Virus record (IMG/VR): IMGVR_UViG_3300022660_000063
Span: 64,001-90,008 of that record
Origin: a virus
Taxonomy: Duplodnaviria > Heunggongvirae > Uroviricota > Caudoviricetes
Strand: one strand, 5' to 3'
DNA length: 26,008 nucleotides
A program made the translations under genes and the position numbers. A model generated the notes under the pieces. That model was not told the origin of the DNA, searched no databases, and saw only the letters and a list, made by a program, of their open reading frames with translations. This document shows, piece after piece, positions 2,388 to 25,367 of the stretch. Within the stretch, counting starts at the first letter, position 1; each line of letters opens with the position of its first letter.

Positions 2388-2389
2388 TA

Positions 2390-5615: not shown

Positions 5616-5627
5616 AGGAATTCATAA

Positions 5628-6275: not shown

Positions 6276-6325
6276 TTAAAATAGTTTTATAGAAATACTT
6301 AACTTATGTTATAAGAGGATAATAG

Positions 6326-8397: not shown

Positions 8398-8406
8398 GAG
8401 AAATAA

Positions 8407-8694
8407 ATGACATTTTTAAAAGGAATAGTGGAAGGTAATCTTGAACAAGTAAAACAGCAATTAATAGACCCAGATAAAATTTATATAATAAAAGATTTAC
8501 CTGAAAATAGTATATCTAATAGTATAATGAATGAAGCTTTGTTAGATAATTCTTTATCTGCTTTTTTAAGAGCAAATAATACATATGTATGTATTGATGA
8601 TGGAACTTATATAAAAGGTCATACATATGTTTGGTTAGGTGATTCTTGGCAAGATATTACCATAGAACAACCAACAGTAGAGAGGTTAATATAA
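8407..8694 (+). CDS. Small tail-associated protein; paralogue of the N-terminal half of 5628..6275
   Basis: SD AGGAG. Alignment to 5628..6275 is visible over about 90 aa. Confidence 0.65.
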   Translation: MTFLKGIVEGNLEQVKQQLIDPDKIYIIKDLPENSISNSIMNEALLDNSLSAFLRANNTYVCIDDGTYIKGHTYVWLGDSWQDITIEQPTVERLI

Positions 8695-8695
8695 G

Positions 8696-9565
8696 ATGAA
8701 AGATATAATAATTAATGGTAAAATTTATAATAATATATCTAAATTAAATTTTAAAAATGATTTAGGTGAAACTGTTACTTTTATTGAAGAGAGTGATATA
8801 CCACCTTATATTGATCCTATTTTATCAAATAATAGCCCTAAAGTTATCAAATTTGCTTTTGATCATGATATGGTGCCTGATACTTGGTCTTCAGTAGATG
8901 GCGATATTATAAATATTAATTGCACTGATGGTAAAATTAGGCAATTAAAACTAGTTGATAAACAAAGAGCAAGATACGAAAAAGTCAATGGTGGGACATC
9001 TAACGGTGTATTTATGCTTTGTGAAGTAACTGAAATTAATGGTGTAAATTATGATGTTCCTGCTATCACAGGTAAACATTCTGATTTATCTTCTGGAAAC
9101 ACAGGAGGTTGGGCAACCTCATTAGCAAATACTGTTTCAATGCCAGAAGCATTTAATTTATTACCAGCTGAATGGCAAGAAATTGTAAGTGAGGTAAAAA
9201 TAGCATCTACTATAGGAGATGGCTCAACTGAAATCAGTTATAGTAATAATAAGATGTTCTGTGCAGCAGCATCTGAAATATCAATTGATGTTACCAATGC
9301 TTATTATGCACAAGAAGGGCATTTATTTGACTATTATTATAATGGTAGAACTTTAACTTCTGTGCCTGTTACGGACCCAGGTAGAATTAAAAATATGTTA
9401 GGACCTACATCATCTGATTCAATAGCAATAATTCAACTATTGAGAACACCTTATCTAAATCCAGTAAGTGAAGTATATTATTTTATGAATTTACAATGGT
9501 CTGCTAGATTGATTTGGTTATCAACTAATACAATTGCAGGTGTAAAAACCTATTTTGCAATTTAA
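8696..9565 (+). CDS. DUF6273-like (C-type-lectin-fold) tail-associated protein
   Basis: GGWATS...LPAEWQEIVSEVKI...NKMFCAAASEI...LLRTP pattern, with a short aromatic C-terminus (KTYFAI). Paralogous to 9581..10480. Confidence 0.6.
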   Translation: MKDIIINGKIYNNISKLNFKNDLGETVTFIEESDIPPYIDPILSNNSPKVIKFAFDHDMVPDTWSSVDGDIININCTDGKIRQLKLVDKQRARYEKVNGGTSNGVFMLCEVTEINGVNYDVPAITGKHSDLSSGNTGGWATSLANTVSMPEAFNLLPAEWQEIVSEVKIASTIGDGSTEISYSNNKMFCAAASEISIDVTNAYYAQEGHLFDYYYNGRTLTSVPVTDPGRIKNMLGPTSSDSIAIIQLLRTPYLNPVSEVYYFMNLQWSARLIWLSTNTIAGVKTYFAI

Positions 9566-9580
9566 TTAAAGGAGAATAAG

Positions 9581-10480
9581 ATGTCAAATATAATAATAGC
9601 AGGGAATAAATTTGAAAATGTGAATAAAGTAACTTTTAACACTCCAGATGGTTCTCTTGCAACATTTTGGTTAGAAGGATTATCTCCTCAACCACCTACA
9701 CCTGAATTTGACCCAATATTTGCAAATAACACCCCAGAGCAAATAAGTGCGGTTAGTGCTTATATATCAGAAAATAACTATAATTCAACTCAAGTTAAAC
9801 AGACATTTGGTTGGGACTTGCAAACTGATACAAAGCCTATAACTTTAACAAATGGTGAAGTGATAGAGGTTGGGTTCTTAGGTTTTAATCATGATGATAA
9901 AAGTGATGGTACAGGTAAAGCTGGTATAACTTTAGGTATGAAAAATTGTTTAAATACTGATTATGGTATGAGTGTAGGTGGGCATACAAATGCGGGTGGC
10001 TATTTTAACAGTAATTTTGCTACACAAGATTTACCAACGATTTATAACTTATTACCAGACGAATGGAAATCAATTATTAAGCCCGTTTATAAAAAAGCAG
10101 CAAATGGTGGTGGTGCAAATTATAGTGCAGTAATAACCCAAAGTTGTAATATATTCTTATTAAGTGCAATTGAGTTATATGGAGAAAATGCTAATATAGG
10201 CAATAATCTTACTGTTAGTGAAGGTGTTGAAGGTGGTATTAATGAGGGCCATATTTATGAATATTGGGTGGATAAAATTAATTCAGATAGAGTAAAAACA
10301 CATGTTAATGGAACAACATTAACCAGAGGCTGGTGGCTACGTTCGATACCTAGTATAGCTTTTCTTACACCATCAGGTAGTGAAGGTGGTGCAACTATGT
10401 ATTTCTTCAGATGTTCAGGAGCTCCACAAATGTTGGGTGCTAGAAATGCAGCAGGTATCTCATTTGCTTTCTGTGTTTAA
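9581..10480 (+). CDS. DUF6273-like (C-type-lectin-fold) tail-associated protein
   Basis: GFNHDDKSDG...ITLGMKNCL...GGYFNS...LPDEWKSIIKPVYK...IFLLSAIELYG...YEYW...WWLRS...GISFAFCV matches the typical DUF6273 pattern. Confidence 0.7.
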   Translation: MSNIIIAGNKFENVNKVTFNTPDGSLATFWLEGLSPQPPTPEFDPIFANNTPEQISAVSAYISENNYNSTQVKQTFGWDLQTDTKPITLTNGEVIEVGFLGFNHDDKSDGTGKAGITLGMKNCLNTDYGMSVGGHTNAGGYFNSNFATQDLPTIYNLLPDEWKSIIKPVYKKAANGGGANYSAVITQSCNIFLLSAIELYGENANIGNNLTVSEGVEGGINEGHIYEYWVDKINSDRVKTHVNGTTLTRGWWLRSIPSIAFLTPSGSEGGATMYFFRCSGAPQMLGARNAAGISFAFCV

Positions 10481-10492
10481 AAGGAGAATTAG

Positions 10493-10978
10493 ATGGCAGT
10501 ATATTTAGGAAAAGATAAAATAGCAGGGATAAGTACATCTAAAGATGTTGAAGGAAGTAATATATATGTTCACTATTTGGATTTAAATTTAGAGACAGAA
10601 GAACCAGGTGAATATTCCAGCCACCAAAGATGCTCTGCTATAATAGTAAATAGATCAGAACAGCCTTTTACTAATACTTTATTTAAAGAATATTGTTTAC
10701 AAAATGATATATCATCAATGACAAAAGGTATAACTTTAATTGGAAAAAGAATAATAACAGATGTAAATGATTCTTTTTTTCAAGAAGAAAATTATAATAG
10801 AGTTTGGTATAATCAAGATGATGATAAAATATATGCATTAGTTAGTATGGGTATTTTTTCTGATACTTCTTTCAATGGGGATAAAACCAATTGGTATGTA
10901 AGATACGATGGATATGGGGGTATGCGAGAAGTGCCTATAACTTTTAACATAGATTTTGATACTATAATAAAAATATAG
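10493..10978 (+). CDS. Hypothetical tail-associated protein
   Basis: SD AAGGAG. The N-terminus MAVYLGKDKIAG resembles starts of tail accessory proteins in Bacillota phages. Confidence 0.55.
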   Translation: MAVYLGKDKIAGISTSKDVEGSNIYVHYLDLNLETEEPGEYSSHQRCSAIIVNRSEQPFTNTLFKEYCLQNDISSMTKGITLIGKRIITDVNDSFFQEENYNRVWYNQDDDKIYALVSMGIFSDTSFNGDKTNWYVRYDGYGGMREVPITFNIDFDTIIKI

Positions 10979-10987
10979 GGGTAATAA

Positions 10988-11590
10988 ATGGCAGAAAATT
11001 TTAAAGGGATAGTTTACTTATCAGAAGAATTATATAATCAAAAGAAATTAAATAATGAATTAGATGATAATACTTTATATGGTACTCCAGATGAAGATCA
11101 ATCTATAGATAAAAGCATTGGCATAGGTGTTACTCATTATGATAAAGATACTTTAAACGAATATCTGGAAGAAATCTTAAGTTATACAAATCCATCAAAC
11201 GGTGGAACTTTACTATTTATTGGATTTAAATTAACTAATGATATCAGCGGTAATAGGTTTAAATTAACAAATTCTTTATCAGGAAGTTTATCAGCATCAC
11301 AAGAAAATGTTACTTTGTTATCAAATGAAACTTTTATTACCTTTAGACCAACAGCTGTTGAGCCAGATAATGGAACTACAAAATCAGTTAAATTTATCTC
11401 TTCTGATACAGGTAATACAGGAGTTATGAATTTAGTGCTAGATAAAACAGGTGGAGTGTTTAAAGCTATCCTGTCGGGTTCAAGTTCAACAGCGTCTGGG
11501 GATACGATAACTCAATATTTCTTTGATAGTATAGATATAATAAATGAACCTATAACACATTTAGTTATAGAGTATCAAGAATCAAATTAG
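10988..11590 (+). CDS. Hypothetical tail-associated protein
   Basis: The N-terminal FKGIVYLSEELY...ELDDNTLYGTPD resembles the LKGI...LDKDKLYIVKD starts of 5628 and 8407. Confidence 0.55.
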   Translation: MAENFKGIVYLSEELYNQKKLNNELDDNTLYGTPDEDQSIDKSIGIGVTHYDKDTLNEYLEEILSYTNPSNGGTLLFIGFKLTNDISGNRFKLTNSLSGSLSASQENVTLLSNETFITFRPTAVEPDNGTTKSVKFISSDTGNTGVMNLVLDKTGGVFKAILSGSSSTASGDTITQYFFDSIDIINEPITHLVIEYQESN

Positions 11591-11599
11591 GAGATTAAG

Positions 11600-12352
11600 A
11601 TGAAAATATTTAAAGGATTTTTATTTATATTTATAAATATTTTAAATATTATATTAGGATTAGCAACTACAGTAGGTACTTGTTGGTTTGCTTTACCTAC
11701 ATTAAGAATAACAGAAATTGGTACCAAAATAACTTCTGCAATACCAAATAATGTTATATTTTGGATAACAATAGCTGCAGCAAGTTTATTATTGATATTT
11801 TATTTGATAAAGAAATTTTGTTTTAAAAGATACTCTGCAAAAGTTAAAAATTTCTTTACTCATTTAAACACCTGGTTGATGGCAATCATAGCTGTAATAT
11901 TTTCAATAGTAGCATTTATTTATAGTGATATTGAAATACAGAATTTTGATTTAACAAAACTTAGAAAAAGTGGTATCGTAGTTTGCTTTGGTTTATTATT
12001 CTTATCTCATTTAGTTGCAGGCAAAATAGCCAAGGTAATAAATAGAAAAATTCAATCTTATGAAAATGCAAAAGAAATGAATGTAGTAGGAAGAAGTTCA
12101 ATAGTTTTTACTAATATGTTAAAGTTAGTTGAAATATTATTCCCTGAAGTTATTGTTCTTTCTTTGATTTGCTTCTGTGTATCTTGGAATGTAGCGGCTT
12201 ATTTCTTAATTATATTAGTAGCAAGTTTATTACCAATGTTGGGAAATATAGAATGTGATTTCACTACTAGAAGAGAAATAATTAGAAAGAAAGAATTAGA
12301 AGATGCTAAATTTATTGAAAATGTAGCAAATAAAATTAAGGGAGATAGATAA
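11600..12352 (+). CDS. Multi-pass membrane protein (about 5-6 TM segments), next to the holin
   Basis: Repeated 18-22 aa hydrophobic segments and a charged C-terminal tail. SD AGGAG; its stop overlaps the holin start. Confidence 0.7.
   Translation: MKIFKGFLFIFINILNIILGLATTVGTCWFALPTLRITEIGTKITSAIPNNVIFWITIAAASLLLIFYLIKKFCFKRYSAKVKNFFTHLNTWLMAIIAVIFSIVAFIYSDIEIQNFDLTKLRKSGIVVCFGLLFLSHLVAGKIAKVINRKIQSYENAKEMNVVGRSSIVFTNMLKLVEILFPEVIVLSLICFCVSWNVAAYFLIILVASLLPMLGNIECDFTTRREIIRKKELEDAKFIENVANKIKGDR
12304..12317 (+). promoter_or_regulatory. Putative internal promoter motif TGCTAAATTTATTG upstream of the holin
   Basis: 13-nt identity to the intergenic motifs at 1898 and 21824. Lies 35 nt before the holin ATG. 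Confidence 0.4.
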
Positions 12353-12735
12353 TGGATTGGTCAATAATTTTAGATTATGGAGTTAAAATAGCAGGCGTTG
12401 TTATTGCTACTTTAATTACAACTTTTGGTTCTATTTTATTTGCAAAATTAAAAGCAAAGATTCAAGATAAACGAGTAGATAATTTCATAACAAATGCAGT
12501 AAAAGCAGCAGAACAACTTTACCCAAATTTAGGAAAGAAAACTGGTAAAGAAAAATATGAATATGTTTTAAATGAAGTATTAGCTAAATTCCCTAATATG
12601 ACTAATAACCCACATTTAAAAACATTGATAGAAGCAGCAGTTTATGGAGTATCTGAACAAGTTAAACAAATAGCAAAAGAACAAGGTATTGAAGTTGAGG
12701 TTAAATCATCTAAACAAACTTTATCTAGTTTTTAA
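12352..12735 (+). CDS. Holin, LL-H-like family
   Basis: A single N-terminal TM segment followed by AVKAAEQL...GKEKYEYV...LIEAAV, the characteristic LL-H holin pattern. Confidence 0.75.
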   Translation: MDWSIILDYGVKIAGVVIATLITTFGSILFAKLKAKIQDKRVDNFITNAVKAAEQLYPNLGKKTGKEKYEYVLNEVLAKFPNMTNNPHLKTLIEAAVYGVSEQVKQIAKEQGIEVEVKSSKQTLSSF

Positions 12736-12741
12736 TTAAAG

Positions 12742-12792
12742 AAGTCTTTAGAACTTGTTTTTAAGTAATTCTAAAGACTTTTTATTATTTTT
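12742..12792 (+). terminator. Intrinsic terminator after the holin
   Basis: AAGTCTTTAGAA (12742-12753) is the exact reverse complement of TTCTAAAGACTT (12769-12780). It is followed by TTTATTATTTTT. Confidence 0.8.
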
Positions 12793-12856: not shown

Positions 12857-13933
12857 ATGAAAAGAGAAGATAATATAATAAAAAAATTATTAAACAAAGT
12901 AACTATAGAGCAGTGGCAGAAAGCTTTAAGAGTTATTATAATATGCATGGCATTTATGGCTATATCAGAAGGTATATTTGAGATACCTGCAATAGAAGAA
13001 TTTTTTGGTTCTGGTCTTATAGAAGGTAAGTCTGGTTGGTTGGTGTATGCAATAATCTGAGTGATTATGTTTGCTCAAGTAGCTATAATTCCAATTCCAG
13101 CATTACCTATTTTGGTAGCTTGTAATCAAATACCTAATTTAGTTGCTAATGGAAATGAGATAGCAAATTTATTTAGTCTAACTACTTTATTTTTTGTTGT
13201 ATTTGTATGCTCTGCCACTATAACAGGTGCTATAGCATCATACTGGATAGGAAGAACATTCGGTAAACCAGCTATAAAATGGGTAGCAGGTTCTAATGAA
13301 GATTATGAATTATGGAGTAAAAAATTAAATAGTAAGACAGGTAAATGGATATATGGTGCTACTGTTTTATTTCCTATATTCCCAGATGATTTAATATCAT
13401 TAGTAGTAGGTTCAATTAAAATGAATTTTTCATTTTATGTTATAGTAAATGCAATATGTAAATTCATAGGTTTATATTGCATGTTATTATTTATGAGAAT
13501 ACCTGGGTTAGACATATTCTTTGGTAAAGAGGGAAATGGTCCTCCAATTGCACTAATAGTTTATATTTTAATTTTAATAGTAGCAATTATATTAAAAAAG
13601 ATATTAACAAAGATATCAGATAGAAAGCAACCTAAAGAAGTAAAGTTAGAAGAAATTAAAGAAAAAATACTGTATATATTAAATAAAAAGAAATCTGCTT
13701 ATAAAGATTTAATTATTGATTATAATTTAGATATTAAAACTAGAACATATTTAGGAAGTAGAATTATTATTCATAAATATTATATAGTTAATAAAAATAA
13801 TAAGAAACAAAAAGTTAGAATTTTAATTGATTGTAAAGCAAATAATTATAAACAAATTATATTTGATAAAAGTTATAAATTAACTGAGGTGTATGATACT
13901 TTTGTAGAGGATTTTAAACAATGCGATTTTTAA
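12857..13933 (+). CDS. DedA/VTT (TVP38/TMEM64-like) membrane protein with a C-terminal soluble extension; TGA 13058-13060 read as Trp
   Basis: Track ORFs 12857..13060 and 13061..13933 are in the same frame, separated only by TGA inside a TM helix (LVYAII-W-VIMFAQVAIIPIP). Motifs QVAIIPIP, GAIASYWIGRTFG and LFPIFPDDLISLVVG are typical of VTT/DedA. Confidence 0.8.
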
Positions 13934-15225
13934 GAGAAGAATTATTATTGGAAGATATATGAGATTTAAAAAAATATTTTCCAAAAATTGATGATAAAAA
14001 ATATTTAGCATTAATTCAACTAGATCCTACATATAAAGGTGGTGATATTGCAGGAACTTATGCTAAATGGATTTTAAGTCTTGCTAATAAAAACAAACTA
14101 GATAATATTGGGCATGTTACCGATATATTAAAAAGATTTGAAGAGAATAAGAAAAATCTTAAAAATAAAGATATAATGACTTTTAAATCTCTTGAAGATT
14201 TAGATAACTATCTAAATGATAAAAATTCATATAAAGAACTATCTCAAAGACAAGAATTAAGACAGACTCAAAAAGCTGTAAGAGCTTCTGATATTGAAAA
14301 AGACGCTGAATTAGTTTATGAAGACTCTAATTGAAAAGTATATATTCCTAAAACTTATGAAGCTAGTTGTAAGTTAGGTAGAGATACAAGTTGGTGTACT
14401 GCATCAACTTCAAGTGACTATTATTATGATATGTATACTGATCAAGGACCTTTGTATATAAACATAAATAAAAGAACTAATGATAAATATCAATTTCATT
14501 TTGAGTCAGGTTCTTTTATGGATATGGATGATGATCCTATCGATGTAAAATCTTTCTTTGTAACTTCAGGTAATGAAAATTTATATAATTTTTATAAACC
14601 TTTAATCAGAGAGAAATTAGAAGGGTTGAAACCTTTCGATGATAATTATTCTATTTTAGATGTTAGAATGAGTAAATTAGCTGAAGGGCTTTCTAACAGA
14701 ACTTGGTCAGAAGATTTTTTACTTTCTTGTATGACCGGTGATATTTATGAACAATGAGATTGAACACCTTATTGATATTCAGCGGAAGAATTAGATTTTA
14801 TCACCACTTACTTAAATGACACAAATAAAGAAATACTAAAAGATCATAATATTTCTTTAGATAATTTAATTAATGAATTAAATGAAAATGATGCTTTACA
14901 TGATGCTATCAATATGGCTGTAAATGATGCATATAATGTAGGTAGTCAAGAAGCATGTGTTAAGGATTTTAATAAAGCTTTAGATAAGGCTATACCTTTT
15001 AAGTATAAAGCAAATCAAGAAACTCAACATTATGAAATCTATTTAACAGACAAAGATATTTTAGATCTATATGATTATATAAAAGGTTGTTCAACAGAAG
15101 AAGCTTTTGTTAATTATACAGCAGAAGATTTCTATTTTAGAGAACCTCAATACAGTTGAATGGAATTTGACGAAAGCATTTTTAATGATAGATTAAACGA
15201 TGCTCTTATTACAGAGGTATTTTAA
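13921..15225 (+). CDS. 434-aa uncharacterised phage protein with a W-C-T-A motif domain; six TGA read as Trp; possible head-packaged protein
   Basis: One continuous frame from ATG 13921 (SD GAGG) to TAA 15223-15225, interrupted only by TGA at 13960, 14332, 14755, 14761, 14773 and 15157. Contains W(TGA)KVYIPKTYEASCKLGRDTSWCTAS...GPLYI...KYQFHFES..FMD. Both ends overlap neighbouring genes. Confidence 0.8.
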
Positions 15226-16004
15226 TGAAATTTTTAAAAGAAAATAGAATTTACTTAAATGATTATGGAACTGGTAACATAGAAAATAATCAATATTTTG
15301 ATGTAACAAAAAGTGAAATGTCAAAGTATACAGATTATTTACGAGATCCAGAAAATACAAATAAATATTTTAAAACAACTTCTTCTATTGAAATGCTTAG
15401 CCCTAGAGAATATTTTGAAGCATGTGCAGAAATATTCGATAGCACTTTTGAAAAGCAATATAAACAAATTCAACGTGAATCAGAAGATCTTGAACATTTA
15501 AAAAATGTTATCTTAAAACAAAAGAAAAAATTTCCTATAACAGTTTTAAATTATGCTGAAAATATGCAAGAAGGTAGACATAGAATGTTTACTCTTGGAG
15601 AATTATTTGGTTGGGATAAGAAATATCCAGTGCTAGTTGTAAGAGAAACTCTTGAAGGTAAGGAATATAAAAAACAACAAGCTATATTCAGAGGTTTGAA
15701 TAGATTAACTAATAGAGCATTGGAATTTACTTTTGACAGTTATGAAGATGCTATCGAAGAAATAAGATACCATTTAGACAGAGAATTAAAAGATTACTAT
15801 GATTATGAAGATTTGGATATTATATTAACTAAGAAACCTTCTATAATAATTCAAGTAGATAATGTAAGTTATGAAATAGAAGATGACCTAATAAATATAG
15901 ATCCAGATAGAGAAAAAGATGACTTAGAAGATTTATTAGATATTGAAGATTTAATGTCTGAATTATCTCCTAGAGAACGTGAAATGTTTAAATTTGATAA
16001 CTAA
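15225..16004 (+). CDS. ParB/Srx-like domain protein
   Basis: FPITVL...QEGRHRM (15567-15584) resembles the ParB N-terminal/sulfiredoxin (D/E)GxHR motif. Acidic C-terminus. Confidence 0.55.
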   Translation: MKFLKENRIYLNDYGTGNIENNQYFDVTKSEMSKYTDYLRDPENTNKYFKTTSSIEMLSPREYFEACAEIFDSTFEKQYKQIQRESEDLEHLKNVILKQKKKFPITVLNYAENMQEGRHRMFTLGELFGWDKKYPVLVVRETLEGKEYKKQQAIFRGLNRLTNRALEFTFDSYEDAIEEIRYHLDRELKDYYDYEDLDIILTKKPSIIIQVDNVSYEIEDDLINIDPDREKDDLEDLLDIEDLMSELSPREREMFKFDN

Positions 16005-16029
16005 ATAAGATAAGGAGATTATGTAGCCA

Positions 16030-19000
16030 ATGACTTATAATTTCGATGAATTAAATAATCTTTCAGAAGAAGAGAAAAAATTAGCTTTAAGTATTTTAGA
16101 AGAATTTTCAAAAGAAGGTACCTCTAAAGTATTTGAAGATTTAAAATACGCAGATTATAACGAGATACCCGTAGACATAGAAACATTCTTAGATGACAAT
16201 AATTATTTAGGACATGCTTGACATGATGCTGAAGGTAAATCTAAATTATATCCTTTTTGAAGAGAAAAATTAAAAAAATTATTTCCGGATAATATTTCAA
16301 CTAGTGTAAATACATTTATTGAATCAGGAGCAAGAGGTTTAGGTAAAGCACAACCATTAGATAGTAAAGTTATGACATCTGATGGGTTTATTCCTATGGG
16401 ATCAATTAAACCTGGTATGAATGTAATTGGAGCGGATGGTAAGCCACATATCGTCACTCATATTTTTCCGCAAGGTGTTAAAGATGTTTATAAAATAACT
16501 TTTACAGATAAAACAACTACTGAATGTTGTAAAGAACATCTTTGGACAATTTTGCCAAAAAATAATTATAAGTATAAGAAAACTATTCATTTGCAAGAGT
16601 TATTCGACAAACCATTAATTAAGGTAAAACAAGGTAAATATAAAGAACATCTTTATTATATACCTGTAACTAAGCCAATTGAGTTTGAGAAAAAAGAACT
16701 ACTAATTGATCCATATATATTAGGGGTAATTTTAGGCGATGGCTGTATCCGAAGAAACTCATGTTCATTAACAAGTGCAGATAAAGAATTAATCGATTAT
16801 ATATCAAATAAATTAGATAAAACATTTGATAACATAAAAATAAGCCCATTACCATCATGTAAGTATGGATATATATTTTCTCAAAAAGTAAAAAAATTTA
16901 CTGTTGGTCCTAAAGGTAATCCTGTCGCCGAACCAAATCCTTTTGTTGAAGCATTACATGATTTAAATCTGATAAAATCTTCAGCTGATAAATTTATACC
17001 AAATATTTATTTACATAGCTCAGTCGAAGATAGAATTGAATTATTACAAGGATTAATGGATACTGATGGTACAATAACAAAAAATGGATCAACAATCCAA
17101 TTTAATACAATCAGTTCACAACTTTGTGACAATTTTATTTATCTAGTACAATCATTAGGTGGTGTAGCTCAATACAAAGAAGTTACAGGTAAATATAAAA
17201 AAGATGGGAAAGTTATAGAATGTAATACAAGCTATACTATCTCTATAAAATTACCTAAAGAAATAAAACCATTTAAATTATCACGAAAACTATCTAGAAT
17301 TAATCCTAATTCTTTAAATCCTAGTAGAGCTATAGAATCAATTGAATTGTCTAGAAAAGTTGAATGTCAATGCATAATGATTAATAGTGATGATCATTTG
17401 TATTTAACTGATAATTGTATAGTTACACATAATTCCGAAATCGCTGTTGCTGTTGCTTGTTATCTAATGTACAGGATAATGTGCTTGAAAAACCCAATTG
17501 AATTTTTTCACTTAAAACCAACTGAAAAAATATGTTTTGCTTTTATGAATATTAAATTAGCTTTAGCAGAAGAAATTGGTATTAGTAAATTTCAAAACAC
17601 AGTAAAACTTTCACCATGGTTTATGGCAAGAGGAACTATGGAAGGTAGGACTAATTTAAAATGGGTTCCACCTGATTATATCAATATAATAATTGGTTCC
17701 CAAGCAGATGACTTGATTGGTTTGCCTATTTTCTTTGCTTTCTTTGATGAAATTTCATTTATGAGAAATCAAGATATAGATAAACAAAAAGAAAAAGCAA
17801 TTAATATGATTGATACCGCTATTGGGGGTATGAAAACAAGGTTTATTTATAAAGGTATAAATCCTACTTTACTTGCTTTAGCATCTTCGAAACGAAGTGA
17901 AAAATCATTCCTTGAAGAGCATATTAAAAAGAAATTAAAATCTGAGAAAGAAAATGTTTTAATTGTTGATGAACCTGTTTGGAAAGTTAAGCCAAAAGGT
18001 ACTTATAAAGAAGAAACATTTAATGTAGCTTTAGGAAATAAGTTCTTGATGTCTCAAGTTATACCTACTAATGATGATGTAGATATATGGAGAGATAAAG
18101 GCTATAAAATAATTGAAGTTCCTATAGATTTTAAATCAAACTTTTTAGATGATATTGAAAGAGCATTATGTGACTTTGCTGGTATATCATCAAGTGAAAT
18201 TAGTAAATATATTTCTGGTGTTGCAGTACAAGAAATTAAAAATCTTGAATTACAAAATCCATTTATTAAAGATATATTAGAAATAGGAAATAGTCAAGAA
18301 GATAAGATACAATACTATGATTTATTTGATTTAAGTAAAGTAAATAAAAGATTAAAGAGTAGACCTTTGTTTATTCATCTAGATATGTCAGTAAGCGGAG
18401 ATATGACTGGTATTGCAGGTGTTTGGATTAAAGGTAAAAAACTAAGTACAACTGAAAATCAATCAAATGATTTATTTTATACTCTTGCTTTTTCAGTTTC
18501 GATTAAAGCACCAAAAGGATATCAAATATCTTTTGAAAAGAATAGAAATTTTATTTATTGGTTAAAAGAACAAGGATTTAATATTCAAGGTATCACGACA
18601 GATACTTTCCAAAGTTATGATACAGGTCAAGCATTACTTGCTAAAGGATATAAGTATAGTGTTTTATCTGTTGATAGAGTAGATTCAGATCATATATGTA
18701 AACCTTATCAAAATTTTAAATCTACAATTTATGAGAAAAGACTAGAAATATATGATTCTAAAACTTTAATTGATGAAATTATAGATCTAGAAAGAAATAT
18801 AAATACTGGAAAAGTAGATCACCCTGATGGTGGACGAAAAGACGTGTGCGATGCTGTATGTGGAGCATTATTTAATGCATCTAAAAATGCAGAACAATTT
18901 GCTTTTGATTTCGGAGAAAGTTTAGATACAACATTACAAGTAAGTAATGCTACAGCAAATGATAGTTATACTAAAAAACAAATAAATATAGAATTTGAAG

Positions 19001-19215
19001 AAGAGATAAAAAATTTACTAGATCCTCTATCAAAACAAAAGCAAAAAATATTAGATAAAAGCAGTTCTATTGAAAATAAACAAGAAAATAATGCTAAATT
19101 TAAAGAAAATAACCAATCTAATTCTAATGCGTTTAAACCAATAGATTTTGGATTTGGTTCAGCTACACCTTATAAGCCATCTGCATTAAGAGATGGGATT
19201 ATATTCTGAGGTTAA
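16030..19215 (+). CDS. terL: Terminase large subunit with an intein; TGA at 16219, 16258 and 19207 read as Trp
   Basis: SD AAGGAG precedes ATG 16030, and the frame is continuous with track ORF 16372..19209. Walker A GARGLGK/S is split by the intein; Walker B FAFFDEI; nuclease motifs IHLDMS, ITTDTFQS and KVDHP..GRKDVCDAVCG are present. Walker A lies upstream of the track's start, so readthrough is required. Ends TGA-GGT-TAA. Confidence 0.92.
16348..17433 (+). mobile_element. Class 3 intein (362 aa) with a LAGLIDADG homing endonuclease, inserted in the TerL Walker A motif
   Basis: Begins AQPLDSKV (Ala1) after GK and ends IVTHN before Ser+1. Block B is ECCKEHLW and block F is VECQCI. LAGLIDADG motifs are PYILGVILGDG and ELLQGLMDTDG. 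Confidence 0.92.
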
Positions 19216-19233: not shown

Positions 19234-21108
19234 ATGCCTAATGAAATAGATTCAGCTGTAATAGATGATGAAGTTAATTATAATAAAAAGATAAGACCTA
19301 TTCCTAAACCTCAACAAAGTGATACTGATCTAGCAGAGCGAGGTATTGCTTCGGTAATAGCAGAGATAGGTGATAGTAGCAAAATAGATATATCTGCAAT
19401 CAATTCATTTGACCAAGCAAGTCAGACACGAGATCAGCTATACCAATTATTAGATACGATGGGTGATGATCCAACAGTTGCTGCTGTATTAGAAACATAT
19501 GCAGAAGATGCTACTGAATATAATGAAAATGGAGAAATTGTTTGGTCAGAATCTGATGATGCAAATGTAAATAAATATATTACTTATCTATTAAAAAGTT
19601 TAAAGGTAGATAAAAATATTTATAAATGGGTTTACTCATTGATTAAATATGGTGATATTTATTGGGAATTATTTAAAGAATCTGAATATAATAATGACGA
19701 GTTCTTCAATACAAATGCAAATAAAGAAACTGATGAAGATATTCAAAAGAGAAAATCTCTTAAAGAAGCTATAGATATAAATCTTTATAAAACAACTGAT
19801 CATTATGTACATTATATAGAAGCAGTTCCAAATCCCGCTACAACTTTTGAATTAACTAGATTTGGCAAAACAGCTGGCTTTATACAAACAGATATCGGAA
19901 CAATAGCAAAGAATAAAAATAATTTAATAACAACTTCTTATAGTTATAGATTCCAAAAAGATGATATAAATATTTATAATGGAGATAAATTTGTTCATGC
20001 CGCTCTCGAAGACAACACATCAAGAATACCTGAAAAAGTAAAATTATTTAGAGATGACAATGCTTTACAGAAAGATAATGGTACAGAGTACACCGTCAAA
20101 CGTGGTCAGTCCCTTTTATACAACGTATTTAAAATATGGCGTGAATTATCTTTATTAGAAAACTCAATGCTATTAAACAGAATAACTAAATCATCTATTA
20201 CAAGAGTGATCAATGTTGAAATTGGTGATATGCCAAAAGAAGATGTCAGAGGTTATTTAGCAGGTATAAAACAATTAATAGAACAAAAATCAGCAATTGA
20301 TGCTGGTAATTCAATGTCTGATTACACTAACCCAGGACCTATTGAAAATAATATTTATGTACCAACTCATAATGGCCAGGGTTCAATTACAGCAAACCAA
20401 ATAGGTGGAGATGTAAATGTAGGTCAATTACCTGATGTTGATTATTTTACTAATAAATATTATGGTGCATTAAGGGTACCTAAACAATATTTTGGGTTTA
20501 CTGATGATGGTGCAGGATTTAGTGGTGGTCAATCTTTAGCAATTATATCTTCAAGATATGCTAAAGCAATAAAGAGAATCCAAAACACTGTTATTCAAGG
20601 CATAACTGATGTTATTAATTTAATGTTAATAGATAAAGGCTTACAATCTTACTTAGGTAAGTTTACTATTAAAATGCAACCACCAACAACTCAAGAAGAA
20701 ATTGATAGAAGAGAAAATACTGTTGGAAGAATTGGTATCGTAAGAGATGTCATGGATCTTTTAACTGATGTAGATAATCCAGCAACAAAACTTAAAATAT
20801 TAAAAATACTTTTATCTAATGTTATATCAGATTCAGATATAACAAGCTTATTAGAAGAACAGATAGATGAATTAGAGCAACCAGGATTAAGTGAAACTTC
20901 TCAAGAGGAAGAAGATTTAGGATTAGGTAGTTCTAGTAACATAGGCAGTGATATTGGACTTGGAGAAAATGAACCATTAGACTTAGACACTGAATTAGGA
21001 TTAGAGACTGAAACTGAAATTTCTCCAGAAGAGGAAGAAGATATTTTACCAACACCTGAAGAAGCGGGTGAAGGCGAAGATTTTACAGATAATAATTTAG
21101 AATTTTAA
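19234..21108 (+). CDS. Portal protein (T4 gp20-like)
   Basis: RVINVEIGDMPKEDVRGYL and DVDYFTNKYYGALRVPKQYF match gp20-family motifs. Acidic C-terminal tail; lies directly after terL. Confidence 0.88.
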   Translation: MPNEIDSAVIDDEVNYNKKIRPIPKPQQSDTDLAERGIASVIAEIGDSSKIDISAINSFDQASQTRDQLYQLLDTMGDDPTVAAVLETYAEDATEYNENGEIVWSESDDANVNKYITYLLKSLKVDKNIYKWVYSLIKYGDIYWELFKESEYNNDEFFNTNANKETDEDIQKRKSLKEAIDINLYKTTDHYVHYIEAVPNPATTFELTRFGKTAGFIQTDIGTIAKNKNNLITTSYSYRFQKDDINIYNGDKFVHAALEDNTSRIPEKVKLFRDDNALQKDNGTEYTVKRGQSLLYNVFKIWRELSLLENSMLLNRITKSSITRVINVEIGDMPKEDVRGYLAGIKQLIEQKSAIDAGNSMSDYTNPGPIENNIYVPTHNGQGSITANQIGGDVNVGQLPDVDYFTNKYYGALRVPKQYFGFTDDGAGFSGGQSLAIISSRYAKAIKRIQNTVIQGITDVINLMLIDKGLQSYLGKFTIKMQPPTTQEEIDRRENTVGRIGIVRDVMDLLTDVDNPATKLKILKILLSNVISDSDITSLLEEQIDELEQPGLSETSQEEEDLGLGSSSNIGSDIGLGENEPLDLDTELGLETETEISPEEEEDILPTPEEAGEGEDFTDNNLEF

Positions 21109-21143
21109 TAAACTAGCCAATTATATTGGAAGGAGATAATACA

Positions 21144-21596
21144 ATGATAACTAAAAATGATTGTTTAATTTTATTAGCAGATATTGAAGAAAAAGGAATA
21201 GATACTACTGAAGCAACTAAAGAACTAATTTCATCTCTTAATTTACCTTTATCTGTTATTAAATTTATAAATGATAATAGGCAATTAGATGTTGCTGCAT
21301 TTTATGAAAGACTAAGAAAAAATTACAATAATAAAAAATCTAATCTTTATAAAAATATAGTTAAAGAAATAGAGGATACAAATGAAGTTTTAACTACTCT
21401 TTCATCAATGTTAACTCAAATATTATTATACGCAAGACAAGTTGAAGATAAACAAATGTTTTTAAAACATGCTAGAAGTTCTGAAATAACAGCTGTGTTA
21501 AATAATTATTTCAAAACTTATGATTTAACCAATTGTTTACGACTATTAAGAATTATAAAAGTAGATTTAAAAGCATTAGAAAGTATAAAGGAATAG
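21144..21596 (+). CDS. Hypothetical helical protein in the head module
   Basis: SD GGAAGGAG precedes ATG 21144 (MITKNDCLILL), which is preferred over the track's TTG 21126. Ends in TAG. Confidence 0.7.
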   Translation: MITKNDCLILLADIEEKGIDTTEATKELISSLNLPLSVIKFINDNRQLDVAAFYERLRKNYNNKKSNLYKNIVKEIEDTNEVLTTLSSMLTQILLYARQVEDKQMFLKHARSSEITAVLNNYFKTYDLTNCLRLLRIIKVDLKALESIKE

Positions 21597-21607
21597 GAGA
21601 GAGAAAA

Positions 21608-21775
21608 ATGAATACAGAAATGAAAATTGCAAAAAAATTAGAGAAGAAATTAGCTAAACAAGCAAAAAAAGAAGAAAAGAAAATTAAAAGAGCTAAAGTA
21701 GAAGTTACTGAAATTAAAGAAGAAACAGCTAAAGAAATAAAAGTAAATATTAATAATAAATTATCAAGTTTTTAA
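21608..21775 (+). CDS. Small Lys/Glu-rich 55-aa protein
   Basis: SD TAGGAG precedes ATG 21608 (MNTEMKIAKKLEKKL...), in frame with track ORF 21533..21775. Confidence 0.55.
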   Translation: MNTEMKIAKKLEKKLAKQAKKEEKKIKRAKVEVTEIKEETAKEIKVNINNKLSSF

Positions 21776-21784
21776 TTATAATAC

Positions 21785-21837
21785 TGTTAAATTTATTATT
21801 TAAAATAAAATACAATTATTTTATGCTAAATTTATTA
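21785..21837 (+). promoter_or_regulatory. Tandem putative promoter motifs upstream of the protease-capsid operon
   Basis: TGTTAAATTTATTA (21785-21798) and TGCTAAATTTATTA (21824-21837) lie in a 95-nt intergenic gap. Confidence 0.6.
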
Positions 21838-21870
21838 GAAAACTAAAATAATTACAGGAAATTTATCAGA

Positions 21871-23358
21871 ATGGTTAAGAAAGAAGAATTAAAGTTAGAC
21901 GATAGTGTAAAACAAAATTCAAAAGGTGAAGCTATCCTAGGAAGATTATATGGCACTGTTGCTGATGTTGTTAATCCAACTCGTAATGGTAGAAAATATG
22001 ATGATGCTCTTTGGGAAAAAGTTTTCAATGATCCAATAGTTAATGAATATTTTGAATGCGGTGGGTTGCTTGGCGAATTAAATCACCCTTCTGATAGAGA
22101 AGAAACAGATCTATCGCAAGTTGCAGTTTGTATGCCTGAAAAACCAAAAAAGAATAAAGATGGTCAATTGGAAGCTTATTTAGATATTCTTGATACACCT
22201 AATGGAAGAATAGTTGCTACATTAGCAAAATATGGATATAAATTAGGTATTAGTTCTAGAGGCTCTGGCGAAACTTATGAAGCAATGGATGGTGAACATG
22301 TCGATGAAGATACTTATAAATTAGAGGCATGGGATATTGTTTTATTACCTGCAGTTAAATCAGCAAGACTTAAAATGGTTGAATCAGTACAAAATGGTAA
22401 ATCATTAAAACAAGCTTTATGTGAACAATTAGATAGAGCAACAGAAGATGAAAGAGTTGTAATGAAAGAAACTCTCGATAAATTAAATATTGAATATACA
22501 CCTGAAAAGGTTATAGATAAATCAGAATTAGCAGCCAAAGATACTGGAGCTAGTATGGTTAAAGACTTGCAAGAGTCTCTTCTTGCACAAAGAAAACTTG
22601 AAGCTCACATGACTGGACTCCAAGAAAAGCTATCAGTTTGCTATGCGAAAGAAGCCAAGTATGAAGAGGAAATAGTAAAACTTAAAAATGCTGTCAGAAA
22701 TTTGAGTGAAAGTGTGACTAATGCGAAAGCATTACAAGGGAAAGTTGAGAAACTTACCGAAGAATTAAATCAAAAAGATTTAATAATTAAACAAGAACAA
22801 GATAAATATCAAAAACTTGTTGAAAAACGTAGAATTGATATAAATCGACAATCTAGTTTAAATGAATCAATTTCATCTCAAGCAAATAAATTAAAAGAAA
22901 AAGAAACTATGATAAGAGACTTGAATGAAGAATTTAAATCCTTTAAACAAGAATCAATAGAAAGAGAAAATTCTTTAAATGAAAGCTTAGAAGAAGTTAA
23001 GAAAAATCTTACTATTAAAACAAATGAATATAATTCAAAATTAGCTAATGCCAATAAATTAGTTGAGCAATATAGAAAAACTGCTAAAACTGCAGTGAAT
23101 AAATATATTGAATCTCAAGCTTTAAGATTAGGTATAAATGCTAATGAAATTAAAAACAAACTTTCAGAAAATTATTCGTTTAGTGATATAGATGAAATAT
23201 GTGAAAGTTTAAGTAATTTTAATTTAACAGTAAGTAGTTTACCTTTAGACTTACAAAAAGGAAGAATAAAAATACAAGAAAGTAAAGAGCCTTTATTAAA
23301 AACTAATCCAAACGATATAGTAGATGATAGTTTATTAAGACTCGCAAATTTAAAATAA
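21871..23358 (+). CDS. Prohead core protease (T4 gp21-like) fused to a coiled-coil scaffold region
   Basis: NPTRNGRKYD, LLGELNHP, LGISSRGSG and WDIVLLPA are gp21-type motifs. About 300 aa of heptad-rich sequence follows. Confidence 0.88.
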   Translation: MVKKEELKLDDSVKQNSKGEAILGRLYGTVADVVNPTRNGRKYDDALWEKVFNDPIVNEYFECGGLLGELNHPSDREETDLSQVAVCMPEKPKKNKDGQLEAYLDILDTPNGRIVATLAKYGYKLGISSRGSGETYEAMDGEHVDEDTYKLEAWDIVLLPAVKSARLKMVESVQNGKSLKQALCEQLDRATEDERVVMKETLDKLNIEYTPEKVIDKSELAAKDTGASMVKDLQESLLAQRKLEAHMTGLQEKLSVCYAKEAKYEEEIVKLKNAVRNLSESVTNAKALQGKVEKLTEELNQKDLIIKQEQDKYQKLVEKRRIDINRQSSLNESISSQANKLKEKETMIRDLNEEFKSFKQESIERENSLNESLEEVKKNLTIKTNEYNSKLANANKLVEQYRKTAKTAVNKYIESQALRLGINANEIKNKLSENYSFSDIDEICESLSNFNLTVSSLPLDLQKGRIKIQESKEPLLKTNPNDIVDDSLLRLANLK

Positions 23359-23377
23359 TAAATAGGAGAAAATTAAA

Positions 23378-24685
23378 ATGGCAACATTATTAGAAGCTTA
23401 TTCTAAAAGACTTGCAATTTCAGAAAGTGTTTATAGCAAATCACACAGTGAAGCTATGCCTCAACATAAAAAATTAGTTATTGCAAAATGTTTAGAAAAC
23501 ACATCAAAATTCATGAACGAAGCTTTTGAAAACTCAGTAGGTACTCAAAGAGCTAACTTAGGAGATTTCAAGAAATTTACATTAAACTTAGTTACAGTAG
23601 CATTACCAGATTTAATCGCATTTGATTTAGTTATGGTACAACCAATGTCAAGTATGACTGGATATATCACTTATGTTCAATACACAGCTGGTTCAAATAA
23701 AGGTGAAACAACTCAAGGTGAAGTATTCAACGATCCATTCAGACTTGGTAAAGTAGATGTTAATTATACATCAGAAAGAGTAGTTGAAACAGTTAAAGTA
23801 GATGCACAAGGAAAAGCAACATTAGCTTGGTTCCCAGTTGTTAATACAGAAACAGTTAAACCAGAAGTAGTTGGTGCAGCAGGTGTTACAATCACAGTTG
23901 ACGATGCTAAAACAGGTGCTGTTACATTAGCAGGTGATGGAGTTCAACAAGATGCAGAATTCAAAGTTAGATATGTTTATGATAACGTTGTAATCCCACA
24001 AAACGATTTACCAATTTTAAATGCTAGAATGGAAAGCATCGCTTTAGCAGCTAAAGCAAGAAGAATTGCTATTTACTACTCACAAATCGCTAACTACCAA
24101 GCAAAACAAGATTATGGTTTCGATCTTGGTGATCAATTAGCTCAAAAAGCTGTTGGACAATTAAATTATGAAATCGATACAGAAGTTACAGACTTATTAA
24201 TCAACAATGCAGATGCAGATGGTGATTTAGTATGGTCTAAAACATTACCAATTGGCGTAAGCAAAATGGAACACTATGAAGGATTTACTGAAATAGTTGC
24301 AATTGCTAAACAAAAAATCTATGATAGAACAAAAAGATTTGCACCTAACTATATGTTAGTAGCTTCAAACATCTTACCTATCTTATCTATGGTTAAAGCA
24401 TTCTCAGCAGCACCAGCATCAACAGTTAATGGTCCTTACTTTGCTGGTACATTAGATGGATTAAAAGTATATGTTACTCCAAACATCGAACCAGGTAAAT
24501 TTGTTCTTGGTGTTAATGGTTCAGATTTAGAAACATCAGCAGCAGTTTATGCTCCATATATGCCAGTTATCCCAACTCAATTATTAGGATATGCTGATGG
24601 TGGTATGAGCCAAGGCTTCTCTACAATGTATGACTTAAGACTTCTTAACAAAGATCTATTAGTTTCAGGTAGAGTTACTGCCTAA
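23378..24685 (+). CDS. Major capsid protein (T4 gp23-like)
   Basis: VQPMSSMTGYITY, IALAAKARRIAIYYS...LNYEIDTEV and YAPYMP motifs. Strong codon bias (TTC, AAC, GCA) consistent with high expression. Confidence 0.92.
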   Translation: MATLLEAYSKRLAISESVYSKSHSEAMPQHKKLVIAKCLENTSKFMNEAFENSVGTQRANLGDFKKFTLNLVTVALPDLIAFDLVMVQPMSSMTGYITYVQYTAGSNKGETTQGEVFNDPFRLGKVDVNYTSERVVETVKVDAQGKATLAWFPVVNTETVKPEVVGAAGVTITVDDAKTGAVTLAGDGVQQDAEFKVRYVYDNVVIPQNDLPILNARMESIALAAKARRIAIYYSQIANYQAKQDYGFDLGDQLAQKAVGQLNYEIDTEVTDLLINNADADGDLVWSKTLPIGVSKMEHYEGFTEIVAIAKQKIYDRTKRFAPNYMLVASNILPILSMVKAFSAAPASTVNGPYFAGTLDGLKVYVTPNIEPGKFVLGVNGSDLETSAAVYAPYMPVIPTQLLGYADGGMSQGFSTMYDLRLLNKDLLVSGRVTA

Positions 24686-24709
24686 TTACTGTATATAAAT
24701 ATAAGATAA

Positions 24710-24737
24710 GATTAGCTAGTTTAAAAACTAGCTAATC
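24710..24737 (+). repeat. Perfect 13-bp inverted repeat after the capsid gene
   Basis: GATTAGCTAGTTT-AA-AAACTAGCTAATC. It is followed by A residues rather than a U tract. Confidence 0.8.
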
Positions 24738-24772
24738 AAAAACTTATATAAAATTAAGGAGAGAAAGAGAGA

Positions 24773-25210
24773 ATGGAAATGATAGTTACAGCTCCAGCAA
24801 TTATAAGAATTGCTAACACTTCAGAATTTGCTAAAACATTTCAAGCTTATAAAGAAAACTTTACAACTAAATTAGCAGCTGGTCAAGCATTAGAATTTGA
24901 AGTTAAAACATCAGGTCAAGTATTATATTATTTAAATCAAGCTACAACAGGCTTAGAAGTTACAGTAGTAGAAACTTACACAGAAGATGATACAACTATT
25001 AAATTAAATACTCCAGCATTAATTACATTAAATAACACTTCAGCAAAAATAATTGGATTTATTCCTTATAGAGAAAATTTCCAATATGATATAGCAGCTG
25101 GGGATGAAGTTCAATTAACAGCTACAAATGTTGGTCAAGTATTATATTACTTAGCACAAGCAACTGAAGGTTTAGAAGTTACTCAAGAAGAAATAGTAGT
25201 AACTCCATAA
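24773..25210 (+). CDS. Putative head decoration protein built from two tandem ~65-aa domains
   Basis: Internal repeat (APAIIRIANTS...YKENF...AAG...GQVLYYLNQATTGLEVT vs TPALITLNNTS...YRENF...AAG...GQVLYYLAQATEGLEVT). Lies directly after the MCP and has MCP-like codon bias. Confidence 0.55.
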   Translation: MEMIVTAPAIIRIANTSEFAKTFQAYKENFTTKLAAGQALEFEVKTSGQVLYYLNQATTGLEVTVVETYTEDDTTIKLNTPALITLNNTSAKIIGFIPYRENFQYDIAAGDEVQLTATNVGQVLYYLAQATEGLEVTQEEIVVTP

Positions 25211-25235
25211 ATTTTAAAAAATAAAAAATAAAGTG

Positions 25236-25277
25236 AGGCTGGTTGATTTACCTCCAATCAGCCAGTCTTATCTTTTT
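25236..25277 (+). terminator. Intrinsic terminator of the capsid operon
   Basis: 13-bp stem 25236-25248/25256-25268 (two G-U pairs), loop TACCTCC, then TATCTTTTT. Confidence 0.75.
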
Positions 25278-25339: not shown

Positions 25340-25367
25340 AATAATATAAGGAGGTTTTAATCATTTA

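Follow-up and report, generated by a model that had tools for sequence, protein, structure and literature searches.

Clustering of in-frame TGA codons in three neighbouring genes of a tailed phage, and their apparent loss elsewhere

Gene content of the window

The window analysed here comprises 26,008 nucleotides of a tailed phage (Caudoviricetes; positions 64,001 to 90,008 of the IMG/VR record IMGVR_UViG_3300022660_000063). A per-gene count reveals exactly 10 in-frame TGA codons, all located within three genes of the block 12857-19215. The remaining plus-strand genes of the window possess none, and the gene ends are TAA or TAG in every case.

Upstream of the block, the tail-fibre region (391-11590) is strongly divergent or without homologue in related phages. 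The holin gene (12352-12735, plus strand; phrog_6918, E=4e-10) possesses a single Trp codon, which is TGG both in this phage and in 7/7 relatives. A terminator-like hairpin with a subsequent T run is found at 12739-12783 (plus strand, -18 kcal/mol, z=-5.06 upon folding), in agreement with a preliminary description of this DNA in which the block starts right after a terminator. The hairpin was not picked up by a consensus terminator scan because its stem is AT-rich. The T4 late-promoter motif TATAAATA occurs without enrichment (17 observed vs. 12.9 expected).

The first gene of the block encodes a DedA-like membrane protein with VTT domain and adjoins the holin gene (12857-13933, plus strand; PF09335, 45.4 bits at a cut-off of 33.9). 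Its only sense TGA (13058, codon 68) is likewise TGA in the relatives L085, L093 and L089, but TGG in L083, L003, L091 and L094.

An accessory gene of 434 aa follows (13921-15225, plus strand), with 86 full-length homologues and six sense TGAs (13960, 14332, 14755, 14761, 14773 and 15157). Its product has no match in Pfam or PHROG; the AF2 model (pLDDT 86.6) matches no fold in the PDB at E<=0.001, and the neighbours of the model in the AlphaFold DB appear to be uncharacterised or weakly PcfJ-like folds, so that nothing in these comparisons speaks for the "packaged" protein proposed earlier. An IMG/VR query with the protein yielded no close relative, and its profile matched only distant homologues of the N-terminal domain. 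The gene is missing from the four nearest relatives (L085, L093, L083 and L095) and from L094. According to the identity profile against its nearest relative, L089, it contains a divergent C-terminal cassette (14342-15087, plus strand) with three of the six TGAs and 55-68% nucleotide identity, compared to 85-95% in the flanks; a fourth TGA (15157) is located in a shoulder of 74% identity (15088-15237). The closest orthologue is equally rich in TGA (5/7), and both divergent alleles possess TGA at the same four columns.

The subsequent gene of 259 aa (15225-16004, plus strand), to which no function is assigned, has no TGA and one TGG; its Trp is encoded by TGA in L090. The gene of the terminase large subunit (16030-19215, plus strand; phrog_36964, E=2e-41; phrog_19299, E=6e-37) contains three sense TGAs at 16219 (codon 64), 16258 (codon 77) and 19207 (codon 1060, the third from last). 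Most members of the clade have TGA at codons 77 and 1060; TGG is found at codon 64 in L090, L091 and L003, at codon 77 in L093 and L003, and at codon 1060 in L083 and L095. A phmmer comparison of the terminase with solved structures returned no match. An intein of 362 aa with LAGLIDADG domain (16348-17433, plus strand; PF14528, 38.7 bits; PF05204, 28.1 bits) is inserted into the Walker A motif (GK|S) and corresponds to an exact gap against the intein-less terminase of L085. Its first residue is Ala, it ends with HN, and it possesses one TGG and no TGA.

Between terminase and portal lies a gap of 18 nt containing a ribosome-binding site, and no terminator was found there; judged from this arrangement, both genes therefore probably belong to a single transcription unit. 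The portal gene (T4 gp20 type, 19234-21108, plus strand; PF07230, E=2e-47) has four TGG and no TGA, while TGA occupies three of these four columns in L085 and all four in L094. No TGA is present in the genes of the prohead protease (21871-23358, plus strand; PF03420, phrog_207), where codon 48 is TGG but TGA in 6/6 relatives, and of the major capsid protein (MCP, gp23 type, 23378-24685, plus strand; PF07068, E=6e-33).

Number and distribution of TGA codons

The recount confirms 10 TGA and 17 TGG for the block 12857-19215 and 12 TGG without TGA for 19234-26008. Upstream, the absence of TGA holds, but the earlier tally of about 41 TGG is corrected to 39 (genes 391-12735). The per-gene tally proposed with the preliminary description indicates significant clustering within the window (block vs. 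rest, TGA/TGG; Fisher p=6.7e-6).

In total, 104-115 of the 154 kb of the phage and about 20 kb per relative were covered. Across 104 kb of the phage (28% GC), TGA constitutes about 6% and TGG 94% of the Trp codons, and about 10% of the genes carry TGA. Ten of the 21 TGAs fall in the block, which has only 27 of the 331 Trp codons (hypergeometric p=4.5e-7). The 434-aa gene supplies most of this signal, with TGA at 6 of its 9 Trp codons (p=2e-6); without it, the block retains 4/18 vs. 11/304 elsewhere (p=0.006).

The other 11 TGAs are located upstream of the window in ORFs of at least 100 aa, some of them within the segments that match Pfam or PHROG in SSB, in an FNT (formate) channel and in the reverse transcriptase (RT) of a DGR. 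Confinement to one block, as described earlier, is consequently valid for the window and the following 15 kb of structural genes, but not genome-wide. The reported absence of TGA from structural genes and holin extends over about 47 kb, which include those head, neck and tail genes that were identified, together with unannotated genes of the tail-fibre region, and lack any real TGA; about 90 Trp codons of the structural-region genes and the holin comprise none. Past the window, structural genes likewise have 0 real TGA vs. 13 and 27 TGG, and the even use of TGA in such genes that would have contradicted the description is not seen in these 15 kb.

Decoding of TGA

Judging from the alignments, TGA is decoded as Trp in this phage. 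Among the 86 full-length homologues of the 434-aa protein, W is conserved at column 138 (73/86) and column 413 (75/86), and column 279 is aromatic. Terminase codons 64 and 77 correspond to W in distant homologues, and TGA and TGG replace each other reciprocally at homologous Trp sites in comparison with L003 and with eight relatives. Code 25, in which TGA encodes Gly, was rejected: TGA aligns with Trp or aromatic residues, and G is found only at the variable column 281 (21/86). Three TGAs precede TAA or TAG by 2-4 codons; as the near-terminal TGA of the terminase is TGG in L083 and L095, TGA could serve as the end of 2 of 138 ORFs at most, those with near-terminal TGAs at positions 689 and 11672 of G000.

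A phage suppressor, as proposed earlier, is indeed encoded: a 97 nt tRNA with anticodon UCA is located on the 154-kb parent contig (L088:5206-5302), 4 kb upstream of the IMG/VR record, with which L088 shares 99.98% identity over 11.2 kb. The contig also carries a cluster of 12 tRNAs, and tRNA-Trp(CCA) is encoded by the phage besides tRNA(UCA). In the 90 kb of the IMG/VR record ARAGORN detected no tRNA, with relaxed settings giving noise only; RF-1 and TrpRS domains were not found in these 90 kb either, an incomplete record from which their absence from the phage does not follow. Sense TGAs are followed by T in 15% of cases, compared to 24% for TGG (p=0.013) and 46% for true stop codons; this avoidance is compatible with a release factor competing for these codons. 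Based on their MCPs, which share only 26-33% identity, the closest cultured phages have standard-code Bacillota as hosts.

TGA and TGG in related phages

In the homologous region, TGA accounts for 21-69% of the Trp codons in eight relatives vs. 12% in this phage, the highest share being that of L094 (69%). Genes of the portal, the prohead protease, the neck and the tail region are among those with TGA in the relatives. By family, TGA/Trp is 12/14 in w926, 6/11 in the protease, 8/16 in the gp13-like family, 9/29 in the portal, 24/51 in the terminase, 25/58 in DedA, 0/10 in the MCP and 0/7 in the holin; TGA is present in the DedA and terminase families of all relatives. For each of the TGA columns of the block, at least one relative has TGG or a residue other than Trp. 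A portal protein query of IMG/VR retrieved two loci only, at 43% identity.

In the portal tree the phage is placed inside a clade with 99/100 support, with L003/L091 and L094 outside. At eight or more columns TGG is found in this phage where both sister subclades possess TGA, which the outgroups share in seven cases: columns 34, 112 and 152 of w926, column 55 of w11600, 61 of DedA, 545 of the terminase, 48 of the protease and 116 of gp13, with column 34 of w926 being the one without TGA support from the outgroups. The distribution therefore points to reversion from TGA to TGG on the phage's own branch. Ancestral TGA was lost in 6/6 cases outside the block vs. 2/8 inside it (DedA column 61 and terminase column 545; our own Fisher calculation, ~0.01), counts that are small and derive from relatives not independent of one another. 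Parallel gains of TGA at the same columns of the relatives could mimic such reversions. An early stage of recoding, one of the alternatives offered earlier, is contrary to this polarity, the changes being losses and not gains.

Interpretation and alternative explanations

The window may be regarded as the late region of a phage of about 154 kb from animal faeces, with a head module of T4 type. Its clade decodes UGA as tryptophan by means of the phage-encoded tRNA(UCA), and within this clade the present phage has the lowest share of TGA. No fewer than eight ancestral TGAs would have returned to TGG on the branch of this phage, in opposition to a mutation bias towards AT; the ancestral TGAs of head, neck and tail-region genes would all have been lost, and two within the block as well. 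What remains in the block would be leftovers: three old TGAs of the terminase, one of DedA and six of an accessory gene with a patchy distribution. Lineage-wide loss of TGA, combined with this fast-changing accessory gene, is in our opinion the probable explanation of the clustering, held with moderate confidence, and it works without a dedicated gate.

Suppressor decoding of UGA is presumed to compete with the release factor of the host, and TGA would therefore be a mildly costly codon, cleared first where protein demand is high, whereas catalytic, membrane and accessory genes would tolerate it. Selection against TGA linked to expression is weakly supported; neither the protease nor the neck proteins are high-copy, and expression level separates purged from retained genes imperfectly. 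We only tentatively suggest the stronger version, an un-recoding lineage in which selection turns TGA back to TGG, first in head, neck and tail-region genes. If true, it would constitute a directional retreat from stop-codon reassignment in a phage and provide a gene-by-gene measure of the cost of UGA suppression.

A recombinational mosaic, in which a relative rich in TGA donated the block, or at least the 434-aa gene, or in which the flanks stem from a relative poor in TGA or with the standard code, would attribute the pattern to ancestry instead of selection, and is rather doubtful. Support comes from the 434-aa gene, absent from the four nearest relatives and L094 and with 750 C-terminal nucleotides of 55-68% identity to L089 between flanks of 85-95%; from the divergence or missing homology of region 391-11590; and from standard-code and TGA-recoded Agate genomes that share more than 90% ANI (Borges et al., bioRxiv 10.1101/2021.08.26.457843). 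However, the distances to L085 and L083, amino-acid as well as synonymous, are comparable on both sides of the terminase/portal boundary and remain unchanged from the terminase to the head genes. Furthermore, TGG and TGA are interleaved inside single genes (positions 61 vs. 68 of DedA; 77, 545 and 1060 of the terminase), and the four TGA columns common to both divergent alleles of the 434-aa gene are at odds with an exchange as their source. The mosaic proposed earlier is compatible with the C-terminal part of the 434-aa gene.

An even less probable explanation is a translational gate: the genes of DedA, the 434-aa protein and the terminase would retain TGA to delay synthesis of these proteins until the suppressor tRNA has accumulated, and packaging or lysis would thereby be timed. 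Such a gate would agree with the terminator preceding the block, with the presence of TGA in the DedA and terminase families of all relatives, with its predominance across the clade at codons 77 and 1060 of the terminase, and with the preferential recoding of the transmembrane protein of the Agate lysis cassette, for which timing control has been proposed (Borges et al., bioRxiv 10.1101/2021.08.26.457843). The TGA columns of the block, however, are not kept across the relatives, contrary to what a positionally conserved regulatory stop would require: terminase codons 64, 77 and 1060 are TGG in some of them, and ancestral TGAs were lost from the same genes (DedA column 61, terminase column 545). 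The TGA-free portal starts 18 nt past the terminase with no terminator found in between, TGA also occurs in SSB, FNT and RT genes unrelated to packaging, and other families of the relatives are equally or more TGA-rich (w926 12/14, protease 6/11). The earlier notion of a gate on a unit of DedA, packaged protein and terminase is not upheld by these findings.

A host with code 4, in which TGA is an ordinary synonymous Trp codon and clustering results from drift after recent entry into such a host, would suit the low number of ORFs that could end at TGA (at most 2 of 138) and the 69% TGA of L094, but is highly improbable given the phage's own tRNA(UCA) plus tRNA-Trp(CCA), a TGA share of only about 6% at 28% GC, changes towards TGG on its branch, the avoidance of T after TGA, the nearest cultured phages by MCP (only 26-33% identity) in standard-code Bacillota, and the standard-code hosts predicted for such clades (Borges et al., bioRxiv 10.1101/2021.08.26.457843).

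Comparison with other recoded phages

The phage is of a kind already known, i.e. a TGA-to-Trp recoded gut phage with suppressor tRNA (Borges et al.). TGA-recoded clades of gut phages with phage-encoded suppressor tRNA have been named Agate, Jade and Sapphire, and in their published pattern structural and lysis genes are recoded and replication genes are not (bioRxiv 10.1101/2021.08.26.457843). Shared features are the AT-richness, a length above 100 kb, the animal gut as source, TGA at Trp positions and hardly or never as stop, tRNA(UCA), and TGA in only some genes, with few TGA-rich families. Length, source and code are compatible with Agate. The relatives resemble Agate in the strong recoding of a transmembrane protein adjoining the holin and of a gene upstream of the lysis cassette. 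Unlike these phages, the present one carries TGA in SSB, FNT channel, RT, terminase, DedA and the accessory gene, and none in the holin gene or in the head, neck and tail genes identified, a reversal of the published concentration in structural and lysis genes, which its relatives do show. The inferred direction on its branch, TGA loss, differs as well.

The case bears on the proposal in the literature that recoded stops serve phages to time their late and lysis genes. TGA turnover in the clade appears rapid: one member would have removed TGA from head, neck and tail-region genes, but retained it in replication, membrane and packaging-enzyme genes. The distribution of recoded codons can therefore be shaped by cost and history no less than by regulation, and a clade spanning 12% to 69% TGA provides good material to measure the cost of recoding.

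In phages of Mycoplasma and Spiroplasma (code 4) TGA also encodes Trp, and the host code makes it the usual Trp codon; the phage described here differs in its 94% TGG and its own tRNA(UCA). Code 25 phages of Absconditabacteria and Gracilibacteria are alike in AT-richness and in-frame TGA, which there encodes Gly; about 90% of their genes carry TGA (Borges et al., bioRxiv 10.1101/2021.08.26.457843), compared to about 10% in this phage.

Tryptophan codons of the window

With TGA read as sense, the window is tiled by 26 ORFs, all on the + strand and all ending in TAA or TAG. A per-gene count gives exactly 10 in-frame TGA codons in three genes: the gene of a DedA-like membrane protein (12857-13933, +; PF09335, 45.4 bits) at 13058, a 434-aa gene (13921-15225, +) at 13960, 14332, 14755, 14761, 14773 and 15157, and the large terminase gene (16030-19215, +) at 16219, 16258 and 19207. 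The counts of the preliminary description are essentially right, with 39, 17 and 12 TGG before, within and after the block 12857-19215 and all 10 TGA inside it (block vs. rest of the window, Fisher p=6.7e-6). Its placement of the block right after a terminator is borne out by a hairpin with T run at 12739-12783, directly before the block, a convincing terminator.

Among ORFs of >=100 aa in 104.4 kb of this phage, 21 TGA compare with about 310 TGG. Eleven TGA lie outside the block: one within an SSB domain, one or two within an FNT formate-channel domain, one within the reverse transcriptase of the DGR, two in a 163-aa ORF (5095-5586 of the phage's record, upstream of the window), one each in three ORFs at 42-46 kb of the record, and two four codons before TAG or TAA, maybe former stops. 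The structural genes of the next 15 kb past the window (neck, gp19-like tube, baseplate and others) contain no TGA. Even use of TGA in structural genes outside the window is thus not seen, and the proposed confinement to one block holds for the window and these genes, but not genome-wide. Over the 104.4 kb the block remains enriched (p=4.5e-7); most of this stems from the 434-aa gene alone, with TGA in 6/9 Trp codons (p=2e-6), and the block without it yields p=0.006.

Decoding of TGA

An alignment of the 434-aa protein with 86 full-length homologues has W opposite TGA codons 138 and 413 in 73/86 and 75/86 sequences, and an aromatic residue in column 279. Where Trp positions correspond, the syntenic relative L003 has TGA for TGG at some and TGG for TGA at others, as do seven further relatives, and more remote terminase homologues have W at codons 64 and 77. 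The third-last terminase codon (19207) is TGG in the relatives L083 and L095 and therefore a sense codon, too. Judged by these alignments, TGA is a tryptophan codon in this phage; code 25 (TGA = Gly) is excluded, as the TGA columns align with Trp. Three TGAs are located 2-4 codons 5' of an in-frame TAA or TAG (record positions 689 and 11672, window 19207), vs. ~0.4 expected for 21 TGAs by our own estimate, and resemble old TGA stop codons that are now translated, with termination at the backup stop close behind.

The 90 kb IMG/VR record (58% complete according to CheckV) belongs to a 154,272-bp metagenome contig, the loci of which (L082, L088) match at >=99.98%. A 97-nt tRNA with anticodon UCA is located at L088:5206-5302, 4 kb upstream of the record; it has an extra hairpin at the variable-arm position, the loop of which, CUCCAAA, copies the tRNA-Trp anticodon loop. 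Nearby, 12 tRNAs form a cluster to which tRNA-Trp(CCA) belongs. The phage derives from animal faeces metagenomes and has head genes of the T4 gp20/gp21/gp23 type; its nearest cultured phages by major capsid protein (MCP) infect Bacillota, with only 26-33% identity.

TGA in related phages

Over the homologous ~20 kb, TGA makes up 12% of Trp codons in this phage and, in eight related loci, 21% (L003), 27% (L091), 28% (L083), 33% (L093), 40% (L089), 41% (L085), 48% (L095) and 69% (L094). Summed over relatives, TGA occupies 25/58 Trp codons in DedA, 8/19 in the 434-aa gene, 24/51 in the terminase, 9/29 in the portal, 6/11 in the prohead protease, 8/16 in the gp13-like neck protein, 12/14 in homologues of w926 (a window gene named by position, as is w11600) and 13/31 in w11600, upstream of the holin, but 0/10 in the MCP and 0/7 in the holin. 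Since relatives also carry TGA in portal, protease, neck and w926, the block families are not special in the clade; on codon counts, the peculiarity of this phage is its lack of TGA in the homologous region outside these families.

In the portal tree the phage falls inside a clade (support 99/100) with (L085, L093) and (L083, L095); L003/L091 and L094 fall outside. Eight Trp columns have TGA in both subclades and TGG in this phage: w926 c34, c112 and c152, w11600 c55, protease c48, gp13 c116 and, inside the block, DedA c61 and terminase c545. The outgroups also have TGA at 7/8, w926 c34 being Leu in L003 and a gap in L094. The simplest reading would be that TGA reverted to TGG eight times on this branch, contrary to the AT bias at 28% GC, two of these changes falling inside the block. 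Ancestral TGAs are kept at terminase c64, c77 and c1060, DedA c68 and at least two positions of the 434-aa gene. A heavier loss outside the block (6/6) than inside (2/8) is suggestive, the hand-calculated Fisher value of ~0.01 resting on small, non-independent numbers. Distances to L085 and L083, both amino-acid and synonymous, show no shift between terminase and head genes and thus give no indication that the right flank was replaced in one recombination event.

The 434-aa gene is missing in the four nearest relatives and L094, and is found at the corresponding site in L003, L091 and L089/L090. Against L089, flanking genes have 85-95% nucleotide identity and 14342-15087 only 55-68%, recovered by 15238. 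This divergent cassette holds 3/6 TGAs, and a fourth (15157) lies in a 74% shoulder just after it. The L089 allele is equally TGA-rich (5/7), with four TGA columns in common. At codons 281 and 285 other alleles have Gly/Phe and Ser, so Trp there arose directly as TGA. The designation 'packaged protein' is unsupported: the gene has no family match, and its confident AF2 model (pLDDT 86.6) found no solved or named relative in a structure search. Many homologues of its N-terminal domain are fused to leucine-rich repeats of the type found in two large BspA-type proteins (PF13306) of the tail-fibre region (2390-5269 and 6448-8397), just downstream of the DGR.

Proposed cost of TGA

T follows 15% of sense TGAs vs. 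24% of TGGs (p=0.013, sites non-independent) and 46% of true stops. Such avoidance would fit competition between suppressor tRNA and release factor, hence a host with RF2. Our inference is that encoding Trp by TGA carries a mild cost: TGA would never be tolerated in the MCP, the most abundant protein, would have been cleared in this lineage from other head, neck and tail-region genes, and would persist in low-demand genes and one fast-changing or exchanged accessory gene. The previous proposal has partial support as far as limiting or conditional UGA decoding is concerned; its second part, a translational gate on a DedA / packaged-protein / terminase unit, is not supported. A dedicated gate is unlikely because no block TGA position is fixed across relatives, TGA also occurs in genes with no connection to packaging or lysis, two TGAs were lost within the block's own genes, and the TGA-free portal gene begins 18 nt after the terminase gene with no terminator found between them.

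The TGA-recoded Agate, Jade and Sapphire phages (127-200 kb, animal guts) possess suppressor tRNAs and are partially recoded, mainly in structural and lysis genes; few families are preferentially recoded, including a lysis-cassette transmembrane protein and a tail gene upstream of the lysis cassette (Borges et al., bioRxiv 10.1101/2021.08.26.457843). The relatives match this pattern, whereas the TGA distribution of the present genome is reversed; the words 'revert' and 'reversion' are absent from that preprint. The TGA clustering is real, and the phage belongs to a known type, its apparent reversal being of modest interest.

Further features

The terminase gene contains a 362-aa LAGLIDADG intein (16348-17433) exactly within the Walker A motif, between GK and S, with Ala in place of Cys or Ser as N-terminal residue. 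It is missing in all relatives examined, whose terminases have ~700 aa. In L003 (11705-13824) the reading frame differs between the N-terminal segment, Walker A included, and the remainder of the terminase; a frameshift, a misassembly or a scar at the intein site of this phage may account for this. Different membrane proteins seem to occupy the position after the holin: in L095 (2318-4924) a P-type ATPase of 868 aa is encoded there in place of the DedA-like protein. A 14-nt motif, TGCTAAATTTATTA, occurs in 6 copies in 90 kb (window 1900, 21787 and 21826; record 2541, 44769 and 58525), one of them with TGTT, mostly 20-40 nt 5' of gene starts; two copies precede the prohead protease gene, and the motif may be a phage promoter. 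A tRNA-like element (25278-25339, +; Rfam tRNA, 48 bits) has full acceptor, D and T arms and an anticodon arm reduced to a 3-bp stem and a 3-nt loop (UGA). The same truncated form is present in four relatives (L085:15485-15546, L093:15481-15542, L083:18977-19038 and L003:20499-20558) at the same intergenic site 5' of the gp13-like neck gene; it is therefore no recent wreck and may be an RNA-processing signal.
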